From assembly GCA_964409355.1 (NCBI GenBank), contig CAYPDC010000004.1, positions 16,335-48,334 of the forward strand: a stretch of DNA of 32,000 bases, in the 5' to 3' direction. The translations under genes and the position numbers were made by a program. The DNA is from an uncultured Cyanobacterium sp. (GTDB lineage Bacteria > Cyanobacteriota > Cyanobacteriia > Cyanobacteriales > Cyanobacteriaceae). Positions 1 through 27,826 of this stretch are shown piece by piece. Within the stretch, counting starts at the first letter, position 1. Each line of letters opens with the position of its first letter. Below the pieces are notes generated by a model. The model saw nothing but the letters and a program-made list of their open reading frames with translations, was not told where the DNA came from and made no database searches.

Positions 1-1802
<1,802 letters not shown>

Positions 1803-22062: not shown

Positions 22063-22794
22063 ATGAAAAAAATATTTGTGTTCTTGGCTTTGTTGATCTG
22101 TTTAACTGGTTGTGTACGCTATGATGTCGGTATCGAATTTCCTCAAGCCAACAGTGGTACAATGATTCAACACATTAAATTAGGGGAACAATTAACTAAC
22201 TTTAGTGAGAAGGAAGCTAGTAATTGGTTAAACAGTATTGAACGTCGTGCTTTTAAATTACATGGTAAAAGTAAACGCATTTCTCCTGAAGAATTAGTCG
22301 TAAGTATTCCCTTCAATAATGGTCAAGATTTAGTCAAAAAATTTAATCAGTTTTTTATTCCTGAATTAACTAAAAATTCTCAGAAAAGTCAAGTAGATAA
22401 TGATTCTAATAGTCTTTTCGACCTGTCTGCAAAAATGTCTATTAATCAAAATAATTTATTTTTGATCGAGAGAAATATCCTTAATTTTAACGCAGATTTA
22501 ACTCCTTTAGGCGTAGTTTCTAGTGAAGGAAATATTATCATTTCTTCGGGAGACTTAATCGATTTACAGATTCAACTTAACTTTCCTTTTGGGGCAAAAA
22601 TACTCACTAATGAGTTTGCTACATGGGAGAAATTACCCAATCAACAATATCATATTCAGTTATCCGCAGGACAAGTTAATCAGTTAACCGCCATTTTTTG
22701 GCTTCCTAATTATATCGGTTTGGGTACAGGTGCGATCGCGCTTGTCATTCTTCTCGGATTCTATTTAAAATACCAAAAACTACCCTTAACTTAA
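22063..22794 (+). CDS. Conserved cyanobacterial lipoprotein with C-terminal TM anchor (DUF3153-like)
   Basis: MKKIFVFLALLICLTGC is a lipoprotein signal peptide. A C-terminal hydrophobic helix is present (GLGTGAIALVILLGFYL). I prefer the ATG at 22063 over the TTG at 22042. The DUF label is from memory and tentative. Confidence 0.6.
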   Translation: MKKIFVFLALLICLTGCVRYDVGIEFPQANSGTMIQHIKLGEQLTNFSEKEASNWLNSIERRAFKLHGKSKRISPEELVVSIPFNNGQDLVKKFNQFFIPELTKNSQKSQVDNDSNSLFDLSAKMSINQNNLFLIERNILNFNADLTPLGVVSSEGNIIISSGDLIDLQIQLNFPFGAKILTNEFATWEKLPNQQYHIQLSAGQVNQLTAIFWLPNYIGLGTGAIALVILLGFYLKYQKLPLT

Positions 22795-22853
22795 AAATAT
22801 TTTCTATTTGAGGTTGCATTTCTTCAAAAAAAGAGTTATTATAGTATATGCGT

Positions 22854-22927
<74 letters not shown>

Positions 22928-22974
22928 TTTTTTAATCTTAGACATCTCCAGAGATTATTTTCGTTAGCTCGTAA

Positions 22975-24668: not shown

Positions 24669-24821
24669 CTATTTAGTATAATAACGTTTTTCTGCTTCTA
24701 GCTGTTGAACTAAGGCATTTTGTCCATTTGCTTTCGCAACTTCTAAACGATGCTCTAAACTTTTGAGTAAGTTTGTTCTGTGAGCTTGACGTGCATTTTC
24801 AAGAGCTTTTTGACTAATCAT
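24669..24821 (-). CDS. 50-aa helical small protein, possibly PirA-like (PII-interacting regulator of arginine synthesis); not in ORF track
   Basis: Hand translation gives MISQKALENARQAHRTNLLKSLEHRLEVAKANGQNALVQQLEAEKRYYTK. An AGGAG SD sequence lies 8 nt upstream of the ATG (24830-24834). The A..AH...L...LEHRLEVA.A.G...L..QLEAE pattern matches my recollection of the PirA (Ssr0692) family, but I cannot verify this here. Confidence 0.6.
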   Translation of the reverse strand: MISQKALENARQAHRTNLLKSLEHRLEVAKANGQNALVQQLEAEKRYYTK

Positions 24822-25029
24822 TTTCTTTTCTCCTATATTATTTAATATTATTTAACAATAGACTTCTCCAAAAATAATAGTTTTTGAACAGTATTTCGGG
24901 CTTCTAGCCCGATTGATGGAGATGTCTAATAATTATGAGAGGAAATGCGAATAAAGTGCGATCGCAAAGGAATTTACTACGCAGCACGCACCTCAGCAAT
25001 CCTCCCATGCAAAAACCCGTTATTATCTA

Positions 25030-25176
25030 CTATTGAAGTCCGACTTGTTCAGACACTCTTTCCAACATAGTAGCCTGACGATGACTTTTCCGTTGACGAC
25101 TATCAACCATTAATAAACGAGCTTGTTGACCGATGGAACTGATATTATTGGTAGTCTGATTTAATTTAGCGTTCAT
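25030..25176 (-). CDS. gifA: Glutamine synthetase inactivating factor, IF7-like (48 aa); not in ORF track
   Basis: Hand translation gives MNAKLNQTTNNISSIGQQARLLMVDSRQRKSHRQATMLERVSEQVGLQ. A strong GGAGG SD sequence lies 6 nt upstream. The QQAR.LM...R....R....ML.R...E.G core aligns with my recollection of Synechocystis IF7, including three spaced Arg residues. A glutamine riboswitch sits in its leader. Confidence 0.75.
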   Translation of the reverse strand: MNAKLNQTTNNISSIGQQARLLMVDSRQRKSHRQATMLERVSEQVGLQ

Positions 25177-25214
25177 GATTCGCCTCCTCTAAGTTTCGAT
25201 GAGTTTAGATTTGA

Positions 25215-25272
25215 GGCGCGTTCCTTCAGAAGGTGTTACTTCTTACTTCCGTCTGACTAATGCAGATGAACG
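25215..25272 (-). promoter_or_regulatory. Glutamine riboswitch (glnA RNA motif) in the gifA leader
   Basis: The minus strand reads CGUUCAUCU-GCAUUAGUCA-GACGGAAGUA-AGAAG-UAACAC-CUUCU-GAAGGAACG-CGCC. It contains the conserved CGUUCA, GACGGAAGUA and GAAGGAACGCGCC blocks. P1 forms as CGUUC/GAACG and the internal hairpin as AGAAG/CUUCU. Confidence 0.8.
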
Positions 25273-25290
25273 ATTTATCCTTACTCTTTT

Positions 25291-25320
25291 AATATAACTA
25301 AAAAGTATCAAATTTGACAA
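25291..25320 (-). promoter_or_regulatory. Sigma70-type promoter of gifA with an overlapping NtcA-like box
   Basis: On the minus strand, TTGTCA (25320-25315) is followed by an 18-nt spacer and TATATT (25296-25291). GTC-N8-TAC (GTCAAATTTGATAC, 25318-25305) overlaps the -35 element and spacer, one mismatch from the GTA-N8-TAC consensus. Confidence 0.5.
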
Positions 25321-25404: not shown

Positions 25405-25581
25405 TTATTCCTCGGTTTCTTCTTCTTCTTTCGTGGAATAAACAAAGCTGTTTGCTTTACCCGTTAAAACAGATTTACCCAAAGATAGGGCTTTTTGAGC
25501 TTGTAATTCAGCTTTTTTGATCCAATGGGCGCGACGTTGATTACGTTTAGATTTAGAGGTTTTCTTCTTCGGTACTGCCAT
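25405..25581 (-). CDS. rpmF: 50S ribosomal protein L32 (58 aa); not in ORF track
   Basis: Hand translation gives [74 protein letters not shown] is the L32 signature. Confidence 0.93.
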
Positions 25582-26057: not shown

Positions 26058-26399
26058 ATGACAGAAGTGAATAATCAAAAAACATTAGAGGCAATGAAAA
26101 ATTTTGCCGAACAATATGCCAAGCGTACGGGAACTTATTTTTGTGCTGAACCCTCTGTAACGGCTGTTGTAATACAAGGGTTGGCTCGTCATAAAGAAGA
26201 ATTGGGATCTCCTCTTTGTCCTTGTCGTCACTACGAAGATAAAGAAGCGGAGGTGAAAGATACCTTTTGGAATTGCCCTTGTGTTCCAATGAGAGAGCGC
26301 AAAGAATGTCACTGTATGTTGTTTATTACCCCAGACAATGAATTTGCGGGGGATAAGCAAGAAATTTCTTGGGAAGACTTAAATAGTGCTACCTATTAG
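26058..26399 (+). CDS. ftrC: Ferredoxin:thioredoxin reductase catalytic subunit
   Basis: 113 aa. The CPCRHY...WNCPCVPMRERKECHCMLF cysteine pattern is diagnostic. Confidence 0.94.
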   Translation: MTEVNNQKTLEAMKNFAEQYAKRTGTYFCAEPSVTAVVIQGLARHKEELGSPLCPCRHYEDKEAEVKDTFWNCPCVPMRERKECHCMLFITPDNEFAGDKQEISWEDLNSATY

Positions 26400-26462: not shown

Positions 26463-27826
26463 TTATAGATGTTTGGTGACTATATCCATTAAGTCATTAG
26501 GTAATAAGCCGTGATAGTTTGGTTTTTGTAGATTATCGGAGGCTATATAGTATTTAGCTTTCTCTTCTGGGCTATAAAATAGTCCATCTTGGTAATTGTA
26601 AGTGCCATTGGTTAAAAATTTTAAGGTCATAAAAGGATGAGTTGTGCCTCCTTTTCTTAGGTTTATTTCAATGGCATATAATTGCCATTGATTATTTTTT
26701 TTGACAGCTAAAAAATCAACTCCAAATCTCTCCATTGCACCTTTTTTAACTAATTCTTCTCCTACTTTTAAGGCTAATTCTTGCAGTTGTAAACGATAGC
26801 TGCTATCCGCAGGAAATGAACATCCTAAGTAAATTTGTTGCTCTTCTCCACCTAAAATTTGATCATGGGTGGATAGTATTTCTACTTTTCCATTAGGGGT
26901 AATATATCCTTGTACACTCGGTGAATATTTCTCTTTTCCCTCGATAAATTCCTCGACTATTACTCCTAATTCAGGGATGCGATCGCAGTATGTTAGCCAT
27001 GTTTCTCCTTCTCCTTGCACCTTGGCTTCATGAATAATTTGGGCAATTAAATTTTCACATTTAACTAATGATAAATCAGAGGAAAAAAGTGCAGATATAC
27101 CACTAAGATCTAAAACGGCATTACCCTCTCCTGAAAAGCCTTCATTGAGTTTAAATACTACTTTCTTTAAATTAGTTTTTCGCATCAATAATTCCGCTGT
27201 TTCTCTGATTAAATCATCAATAGTAAATACTAATTTGCTACCGTCGGGATGAAGTAAATTGCATTGAGCAAAAATTTCTCTACTACCACTTTTCGAGCCC
27301 CAATAGCTTAATTCTGGACTGGATGCCAATAAAGGAATGTCTAATTTGATCGATAATTCTTGTTCTAAGGGAGTAGAATTAAAACAAACCATATAACTTT
27401 TATTTGGACGTAAAGAATTCTTAATTTTTGTTACTAAACGTGGTCTTTCTAGTATTTTTTGTGTCAGTGGTTTTAATGAACAATCATAGGTGGTTAATAA
27501 TAATAATAATCTTTCTCTGGCATGGGAAAAGGGAATGCTGGGAAGAAGTTGTAGGTAATAGTCAACGATAATTGGCGATAGAGGTTGTGCGGTGACGTAA
27601 ATCAGCCGAGTATGGGGATTTCTTAACCGAATTAAGGAAAATAATTGTCTTTCTTCGTAATGTAAAAAACCTGCTACTTTTTGCCCACTCTTTGATCTAT
27701 GCTAAAGGAAGGAATGACTAATATATCCGTGTCGTCTTCGTCCAAAATATCCCTATCTTGCCAACAATGACGCAGTTTTTCTTGTAATTCTGTAAATCTT
27801 TGTTTTTCTAACGGAGTAATTGTCAT
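26463..27826 (-). pseudogene. ATP-grasp carboxylate-amine/peptide ligase (PGM1-like), reading frame broken once
   Basis: A 5' ORF at 27826-27674 (50 aa, MTITPLEKQRF...SFSIDQRVGKK*) has a good AAGGAG SD sequence. The protein continues without stops in the -1 frame from 27677 (VAGFLHYEERQLFSLIRLRNPHTRLIYVTAQPL...) into the track ORF 26463..27392. The break lies at GGC AAA AAG TAG (an A5 run). Confidence 0.75.

Follow-up and report, generated by a model that had tools for sequence, protein, structure and literature searches.

The window analyzed here is a 32,000-nucleotide stretch of a contig from an uncultured Cyanobacterium sp., and its subject is a short gene on the minus strand, designated mini-gif, that lies between a glutamine riboswitch and the gene pirA. 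Inactivation of glutamine synthetase (GS) by small proteins is a hallmark of cyanobacterial nitrogen control and is known in two archetypes: IF7, controlled by a small RNA (sRNA), and IF17, which contains a DUF4278 domain and is controlled by a riboswitch. The mini-gif open reading frame (ORF) occupies positions 25030..25176 (minus strand) and encodes a 48-residue protein (MNAKLNQTTNNISSIGQQARLLMVDSRQRKSHRQATMLERVSEQVGLQ; 5.5 kDa, isoelectric point 11.4) that is homologous to the N-terminal, GS-binding half of IF7. The ATG start codon (25176..25174) is preceded at a distance of 6 nt by a Shine-Dalgarno (SD) sequence, GGAGG (25183..25187, minus strand), and two in-frame TAG codons in tandem close the frame, the first of them at 25032..25030. 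A longer N-terminus is ruled out because a stop codon is located five codons upstream of the ATG and the upstream DNA contains the riboswitch aptamer. A first-pass annotation had proposed this ORF and its GGAGG as an unlisted GS inactivating factor of the GifA/IF7 type, and the translation is exactly as it claimed. The ORF is indeed missing from the ORF track; public genomes do list close relatives of it, albeit only as 'hypothetical protein'. The annotation included neither the riboswitch nor an NtcA-like operator nor the adjacent pirA, all of which are present at the locus.

A word-indexed protein search returned four 48-residue relatives with 83–94% sequence identity, one of which, from Cyanobacterium aponinum, is annotated as 'hypothetical protein'. 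About 15 further clusters of 44–51 residues, together with a few mis-started or duplicated forms, emerged when 1.8 billion representatives were scanned exhaustively with HMMER. The family comprises 102 clusters at E ≤ 0.001 in a profile search, almost all of them 41–56 residues long and with the C-terminus just past an ..E.IG.. motif; the annotation of every named cluster is 'hypothetical protein'. The narrow length range and common end point of these ~100 clusters bear out the earlier suggestion of a minimal factor as far as architecture is concerned, with the inactivation itself a prediction from homology.

Genomes, one per species, were also scanned with a degenerate codon pattern for Q-A-R-L-L-M-x3-R-x5-R-x3-M-L-x-R, which ignores the flanks and excludes canonical IF7. 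The scan yielded 20 loci, essentially all cyanobacterial, distributed over Geminocystis, Hydrococcus, Pleurocapsales, Gloeocapsopsis, Chroococcidiopsis, Chlorogloeopsis, Fischerella, Aphanothece and a Leptolyngbyaceae metagenome-assembled genome (MAG). An intact ORF of 44–52 residues is present in 19 of the 20. The remaining locus, in a Chroococcidiopsidaceae MAG (L016, 5336..5390, plus strand), contains an 18-codon fragment (..AQARFLMRERR*) with no riboswitch found in the locus, and is probably a decayed copy. When 19 orthologous mini-gif loci were compared codon by codon, the median pairwise ratio of nonsynonymous to synonymous substitution rates (dN/dS) was 0.25, which indicates purifying selection. 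Between the window gene and its Geminocystis relatives dN is 0.14 and dS is 0.74–0.85, the highest value being that against L008. Stop codons are abundant in both alternative frames of the coding strand at this position. The conserved clusters, the dN/dS ratio and the stops in the other frames thus identify mini-gif as a conserved protein-coding gene rather than a chance frame.

Residues 14–48 of mini-Gif align without gaps to residues 2–36 of IF7, with 14 of 35 residues identical (40%) and a BLASTP E value of 9e-7. The reference in this comparison, P0026, is a canonical 65-residue IF7 that is 92% identical to the IF7 sequence given in the first-pass annotation. A search with an IF7 query sequence retrieved 557 relatives, the best being 94% identical to that query and one bearing the UniRef name 'Glutamine synthetase inactivating factor IF7'. 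All 16 diverse IF7 sequences scanned from this set pass the NCBIfam IF7A equivalog model NF052599, which has a curated cutoff of 70 bits, the first with a score of 121.7 bits. The same model aligns with mini-Gif over profile positions 2–35 of 66, with an E value of 1.2e-5, and matches all 16 of the mini-Gif relatives tested, weakly (best E 8.4e-10). Profile–profile comparison of the two families with hhalign yielded a probability of 98.1% and E 9e-14 with 16 mini-Gif members, and 98.8% and E 9e-17 with 95. The exhaustive search of 1.8 billion proteins did not link the mini-Gif family to canonical IF7 at E ≤ 0.001, so curated-model and profile–profile methods were required to establish the relationship.

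The segments common to mini-Gif and IF7 are QQAR-LM, NRQ..ML.R and E.IG, and compared with IF7 the mini-Gif N-terminus contains 12 additional residues rich in Asn, Ser, Thr and Gln. Arg20, Arg33 and Arg40 of mini-Gif align with Arg8, Arg21 and Arg28 of IF7. In the alignment of 95 mini-Gif members Arg40 is invariant, Arg20 and Arg33 are retained in at least 90%, and these three together with Arg27 are the most conserved polar positions. The alignment with the IF7 GS-binding region and the three spaced arginines in the first-pass annotation are therefore both confirmed. In its motif description, the proposed ML-R-E-G register is off by one for Glu43 of the window protein but holds in the majority of relatives. 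Three conserved arginines are each essential for the interaction of IF7 with GS (PMC6316151), and the IF17 residue named in that work, R110, matches IF7 Arg28 at an offset of 82.

Structure prediction by AlphaFold2 with the 95-sequence alignment resulted in one continuous helix spanning residues 3–45, with a predicted local distance difference test score (pLDDT) of 85 overall and 95 over residues 21–40. A Pfam search with the mini-Gif peptide gave zero matches at E ≤ 10, and a PDB sequence search with it gave no match. The IF7 profile retrieved only noise from the PDB (YbgC thioesterases, E ~0.9), so that no structural template was found, and no structure of a complex between GS and an inactivating factor turned up in the PDB searches. 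An open frame that arose by chance, resembling IF7 through a Gln- and Arg-rich low-complexity composition, would be in keeping with the very short ORF, with the missing Pfam family and PDB match, and with the exhaustive search that fell short of canonical IF7. This explanation is effectively refuted by the number of clusters of conserved length, the purifying selection and the hhalign result, and it also conflicts with the stop-filled alternative frames and with the conservation of the SD, riboswitch and synteny, so that almost no weight is left to it. Among the acidic relatives retrieved, P0018, P0020, P0021 and P0024 (72–84 residues) contain two tandem Gif-like repeats (EQARxLM..ERQ....Q..MLER..E); P0023 (233 residues) also has two tandem Gif-like repeats, preceded by a longer N-terminal region. 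All five have lost the arginine that matches IF7 Arg21.

Upstream of mini-gif, at 25215..25274 of the minus strand, is a type 1 glutamine riboswitch aptamer (Rfam RF01739, 'glnA RNA'), which spans the full model (positions 1–53) with a score of 55.2 bits and E 1e-9, compared with a gathering score of 35. It ends 38 nt 5' of the mini-gif ATG, and one of its P2 pairs is non-canonical. The aptamer is found in all 18 testable intact genome loci, with scores of 53.8–63.4 bits and at 32–39 nt from the ATG; L001 is outside this count because its sequence is cut ~90 nt upstream of the start codon. Stem P1 does not vary among the 18 orthologous aptamers; of the 13 predicted pairs, 6 have compensatory changes, located in P2 and P3. 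Metagenome contigs were additionally scanned for the aptamer core alone, which gave at least 137 aptamers in at least 120 loci (L021–L140). The ORFs located 3' of these aptamers are very diverse and include Amt transporters, glutamate synthase (GOGAT), GS and many tiny marine ORFs. Among the matches listed, four are mini-gif genes (L043, L082, L026 and L117), and together with the genome loci this makes 22 of 22 testable cases with the riboswitch. Many marine contigs in the census have single or tandem type 1 aptamers 5' of tiny conserved ORFs (..DNPFYP, ..FFPYYL, NGNGTSGY); these contigs are probably non-cyanobacterial and may include phage.

The four last nucleotides of the Rfam match and the two that follow form an anti-SD sequence, CGCCUC (25213..25218, minus strand), which pairs with GAGGCG (25181..25186) in both the minimum-free-energy and the centroid folds. 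As read from the sequence, the SD thus has a conserved CG extension (25181..25187, minus strand). GAGGCG is invariant 5' of every mini-gif ATG, and its CG extension is unneeded for ribosome binding and completes the pairing with the aptamer tail. The helix can form in 23 of 23 mini-gif leaders; the aptamer tail CGCGCCUC is invariant except in L013 and L006, where a C has become a U and the pairing persists as G-U. The same platform precedes cyanobacterial DUF4278-type genes (leaders L055, L059 and L076). In another DUF4278-type leader, L036, the tail is CGCUUCUC and the SD is GAGAAGCG, with changes on both sides and a helix of up to 9 bp. The regulatory context is therefore gifB-like, and in this respect the GifA-type label of the first-pass annotation does not fit. 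The 5' strand of aptamer P1, CGUUCAU (25266..25272), is also a perfect complement of the start region AUGAACG (25174..25180, minus strand), and the two are paired in the minimum-free-energy fold. In the clade of the window the full 7-nt complement is present in six loci (the window, L008, L009, L013, L018 and metagenome locus L043); L006 and the other clade have at most AUGAA. This pairing could be a second sequestering helix or a coincidence, and is unproven.

A sigma-70-like promoter precedes the aptamer at 25291..25320 (minus strand), with TTGTCA (25315..25320) and TATATT (25291..25296) separated by an 18-nt spacer. It matches the consensus at 10 of 12 positions and is kept in the Geminocystis-clade loci. 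Transcription from this promoter would start at ~25284–25286, roughly 10 nt 5' of the aptamer. Overlapping the -35 hexamer is an NtcA-type palindrome, GTCAAATTTGATAC (25305..25318, minus strand), of the form GTN-N8-TAC and here GTC-N8-TAC, a putative repressor site. Each of the five clade members (the window, L008, L009, L013 and L018) has the palindrome exactly 45 nt 5' of the aptamer; it is a perfect GTA-N8-TAC in L013, and substitutions within the clade are confined to position 3 and the spacer. In the non-Geminocystis clade another conserved box, resembling GTA-N8-TAC, is located at a greater distance upstream. NtcA activation sites are typically centered at -41.5. The center of the site in the window is at ~-27 from the predicted transcription start, which would be a repressor-type position for this pattern match; the NtcA site of pirA at -33.5 and the sites of gifA and gifB occupy comparable repressor positions (PMC8092223).

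The next gene on the same strand, 208 nt 3' of mini-gif, is pirA (24669..24821), which encodes a 50-residue PirA equivalog. The model NF050139, which has a cutoff of 50 bits, matches it with 71.9 bits and E 3e-20 over profile positions 4–48 of 48. The pirA product is a small regulator of arginine synthesis. The gene has its own ribosome-binding site, AGGAG (24830..24834, minus strand), 8 nt 5' of its ATG. No other Gif-, PirA- or DUF4278-like frame was found in the window besides mini-gif and this neighbor. An intact pirA directly downstream and on the same strand is present in 16 of 19 genome loci and in all four metagenome loci, giving 20 of 23. The exceptions are L007, L019 and L020, of which L020 has a truncated remnant and L007 and L019 have a hairpin after the gif gene.

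The spacer between the gif stop codon and the pirA ATG is 19–41 nt in the non-Geminocystis clade, which leaves no room for a promoter, and 99–208 nt in the clade of the window. A GTN10AC motif is absent from the gif–pirA spacers examined, except for that of L006. In the window, RNAfold predicts a strong imperfect hairpin at approximately 24934..25009 (minus strand), which includes the HIP1 palindrome GCGATCGC. The spacers of L008, L009 and L013 (99–149 nt) contain similar long hairpins, none with a U tract. The hairpin could act in transcript processing or stability, or as an attenuator. An intrinsic terminator between the two genes was considered and rejected, as no terminator-like site is present on the minus strand and the spacer hairpins are without U tracts. 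In Synechocystis, gifA, gifB and pirA are all NtcA-repressed and ammonium-induced (PMC8092223).

The census also contains fused proteins in which Gif and PirA modules follow a DUF4278 domain. The 96-residue protein of L057 combines DUF4278 (63 bits) with a Gif module (IF7A model E 3e-4) and has no IF7/IF17 tail. The 135-residue proteins of L036 and L054 comprise an N-terminal DUF4278 and a C-terminal PirA module (PirA model E 4e-11 and 2.6e-13, respectively), and their ORFs begin 46 and 55 nt after a type 1 aptamer. Type 1 riboswitches therefore have both Gif and PirA as natural cargo, whether the modules are joined to DUF4278 or, as seen in the window, are without it and encoded by two neighboring genes. 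These sequences suggest that some 'IF17 homologues' counted by their DUF4278 domain are really PirA-type proteins, and L057 looks like an intermediate architecture between IF17 and mini-Gif.

With 20 of 23 mini-gif genes followed by pirA, spacers as short as 19 nt, and PirA modules that can be riboswitch cargo on their own in L036 and L054, mini-gif might be regarded as a riboswitch-gated leader ORF that controls the expression or stability of pirA, the latter being the real cargo and the peptide sequence being of little importance. This explanation is improbable. The amino acid sequence of mini-Gif is kept across several cyanobacterial orders at the dN/dS ratio given above, its homology to IF7 is significant, the gene occurs without an intact pirA in three loci, and pirA has a ribosome-binding site of its own.

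Compared with IF7/GifA (Ssl1911 of Synechocystis; IF7A of Anabaena), mini-Gif is likewise a small basic protein, and a putative NtcA-type operator in a repressor-type position would be common to both genes. It comprises 48 rather than 65 residues and lacks Trp42, QGKP and the YDRS tail. The mini-gif gene has a glutamine riboswitch, which the literature ties to gifB and not to gifA; gifA is under the control of the sRNA NsiR4. Thus, the 'GifA/IF7-like' designation of the first-pass annotation holds for homology to the N-terminal half of IF7, but mini-Gif is not a GifA/IF7 equivalog, since it scores 25.4 bits against the 70 required (canonical sequences score ~120) and the tail is absent.

IF17/GifB (Sll1515) shares with mini-gif the leader design, namely the RF01739 aptamer, the CGCCUC tail facing the GAGGCG SD, and the ATG 32–39 nt further on, as well as the Gif GS-binding module and the expected NtcA control. 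Mini-Gif, about one third the size of the 149-residue IF17, has neither DUF4278 (PF14105) nor the tail common to IF7 and IF17, and its gene is followed by pirA. The window was scanned for frames carrying at least two YRG-type DUF4278 motifs, and none was found. Mini-Gif is therefore outside both named subfamilies, because it scores below the IF7 cutoff, lacks the IF7 tail and is without the DUF4278 domain of IF17. The IF17-type sequences recovered for this comparison are the tail-less L057 and the truncated L055, with no verified Synechocystis-type IF17 among them. The Gif module of L057 ends right after ..AEEVGVA, without a tail and behind a type 1 riboswitch, as in mini-Gif, but the protein keeps DUF4278. 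The IF17-like proteins of Prochlorococcus and marine Synechococcus are also shortened and riboswitch-controlled, but they are encoded behind the type 2 (downstream-peptide) RF01704 motif and not RF01739, and the truncations are opposite: in these proteins DUF4278 is retained and the C-terminal GS-interaction region is missing, and in mini-Gif it is the reverse.

The window neighbor is a bona fide equivalog of PirA (Synechocystis Ssr0692). In Synechocystis, pirA is transcribed from a promoter of its own that contains two NtcA sites, and it is not known to be adjacent to a gif gene there, whereas pirA in the window is located behind a riboswitch-controlled gif-like gene and the spacer has no NtcA-like motif. 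The type 1 aptamer turns on IF17 synthesis in Synechocystis upon glutamine binding, and an RBS-sequestering helix next to P1 was proposed for gifB, RBS denoting the ribosome-binding site (Klahn et al. 2018, PMC6212724). In the same work the type 1 aptamer was tied to DUF4278/gifB in 25 of 28 aptamer-carrying genomes, with 'no Pfam hit' for three genomes (PMC6212724). Published work on PirA describes NtcA and NsiR4 control only; the searchable PirA papers and recent reviews make no mention of a gif–pirA operon, of riboswitch-controlled pirA or of DUF4278–PirA fusions, and the arrangement of riboswitch, mini-gif and pirA is described in none of the papers searchable.

Taken together, the locus is probably a glutamine- and NtcA-controlled module that encodes a minimal GS-inactivating factor of the Gif family, very probably co-expressed with PirA. 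When nitrogen is limiting, NtcA activated by 2-oxoglutarate would bind the GTC-N8-TAC site over the -35 box and block transcription, as its position suggests. When nitrogen is plentiful the promoter would fire, producing a 5' leader that begins ~10 nt before the type 1 aptamer. Without glutamine, CGCCUC would pair with GAGGCG and hide the RBS; glutamine binding would free it and turn translation on. This ON-switch model is taken from the proposal for Synechocystis gifB because the same platform is present in the mini-gif leader. The 48-residue, basic, one-helix peptide is predicted from homology to bind GS type I via Arg20, Arg33 and Arg40 and to inactivate it, which would close a feedback loop from glutamine to GS. 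With no NtcA-like site in its spacer, pirA would be expressed in the window genome from the mini-gif transcript, so that rising glutamine would trigger GS shutdown and the restraint of PII–NAGK-driven arginine synthesis together.

Several observations weigh against this interpretation. The NtcA site is known from pattern matching alone, and GTN10AC is a frequent motif. The anti-SD helix is just 6 bp long, the helix of an individual locus only weakly exceeds shuffled sequences (~48–487 of 2000 shuffles match it), and the z-score of the whole-leader fold is -0.87. The 208-nt spacer of the window, with its strong hairpin, makes a separate pirA transcript or attenuation possible. With regard to the protein, the IF7A score of 25.4 bits is far below the curated cutoff, and mini-Gif ends at the residue aligned with IF7 residue 36, so that the 29-residue conserved tail is absent. 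Invariant in the canonical tail are Trp42, Gln46, Gly47, Tyr57, Asp58, Arg59 and Ser60 (the QGKP and YDRS motifs), and the loss of the tail may matter for inhibition. Canonical IF7 has five invariant arginines (Arg8, Arg13, Arg21, Arg28 and Arg59), of which Arg13 and Arg59 have no counterpart in mini-Gif. The arginines essential in IF7 are reportedly Arg8, Arg21 and Arg28, an assignment that is attributed to Saelices and co-workers in 2011; PMC6316151 confirms only three conserved arginines. GS inhibition by mini-Gif is a prediction from homology.

The main competing explanation is that mini-Gif is a true Gif homologue but not a GS inhibitor. With the IF7 tail lost and DUF4278 absent, it might bind GS without inactivating it, for example in competition with IF7 or IF17, or engage a different target, perhaps the PII network together with PirA. 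The missing tail and the sub-cutoff IF7A score are compatible with such a role, as is the tight linkage to pirA. In addition, canonical IF7 and mini-Gif coexist in at least two genomes, Crocosphaera sp. UHCC 0190 (P0031 and P0205, respectively) and Pleurocapsales LEGE 06147 (P0139 and P0162/P0177), which leaves room for divergence, and the function of the truncated IF17-like proteins of Prochlorococcus is likewise unproven (PMC6212724). This explanation is nonetheless considered unlikely: the retained segment carries the arginines reported as essential for GS interaction, which are the most conserved residues of the family, the combination of an NtcA-type operator and a glutamine ON switch is the expression logic expected of a GS inhibitor (PMC6212724), and no data suggest an alternative target.

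Elsewhere in the window, IsrR, an antisense RNA that regulates isiA, is matched at full length at 831..1017 (minus strand; Rfam RF01419, 185 bits), which implies an isiA gene on the plus strand at that position. A tRNA gene (22854..22927, plus strand; RF00005, 62.5 bits) overlaps a spurious 66-residue minus-strand ORF listed at 22745..22945. The gene rpmF (25405..25581) lies on the upstream side of the riboswitch promoter and is flanked by an ATP-grasp ligase-like ORF (26463..27392, minus strand; PF24923/PF02655, with a weak BesA-like match) and the gene for the ferredoxin-thioredoxin reductase catalytic chain (26058..26399, plus strand).

Mini-Gif may represent a third, minimal architecture of GS-inactivating factors, not categorically new and dependent on GS inhibition: only the arginine-bearing helix, encoded behind a riboswitch, in ~100 clusters from unicellular and filamentous cyanobacteria. 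If the protein inhibits GS, the minimal inhibitory module would be delimited, which would be useful for structural work given that no complex of GS with an inactivating factor was found in the PDB, and mini-Gif could find use in metabolic engineering as a compact tool inducible by glutamine. The conserved linkage to pirA suggests that control of the arginine pathway is wired to the same glutamine sensor, and counts of 'gifB homologues' based on DUF4278 miss the mini-Gif family and include PirA-type fusions. A wider proposal is put forward tentatively, with somewhat less than even confidence. The riboswitch, mini-gif and pirA may constitute a single glutamine-sensing operon conserved across cyanobacterial orders, in which one RNA sensor triggers two small-protein inhibitors, one directed at GS and thereby at nitrogen entry, and the other at PII–NAGK and thereby at arginine and nitrogen storage. 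The 41–56-residue mini-Gif proteins would then be the minimal GS-inactivating helix, and DUF4278 would be a portable N-terminal module attached to Gif (IF17) or to PirA (L036 and L054), so that part of the riboswitch-linked 'IF17 homologues' would be PirA-type.

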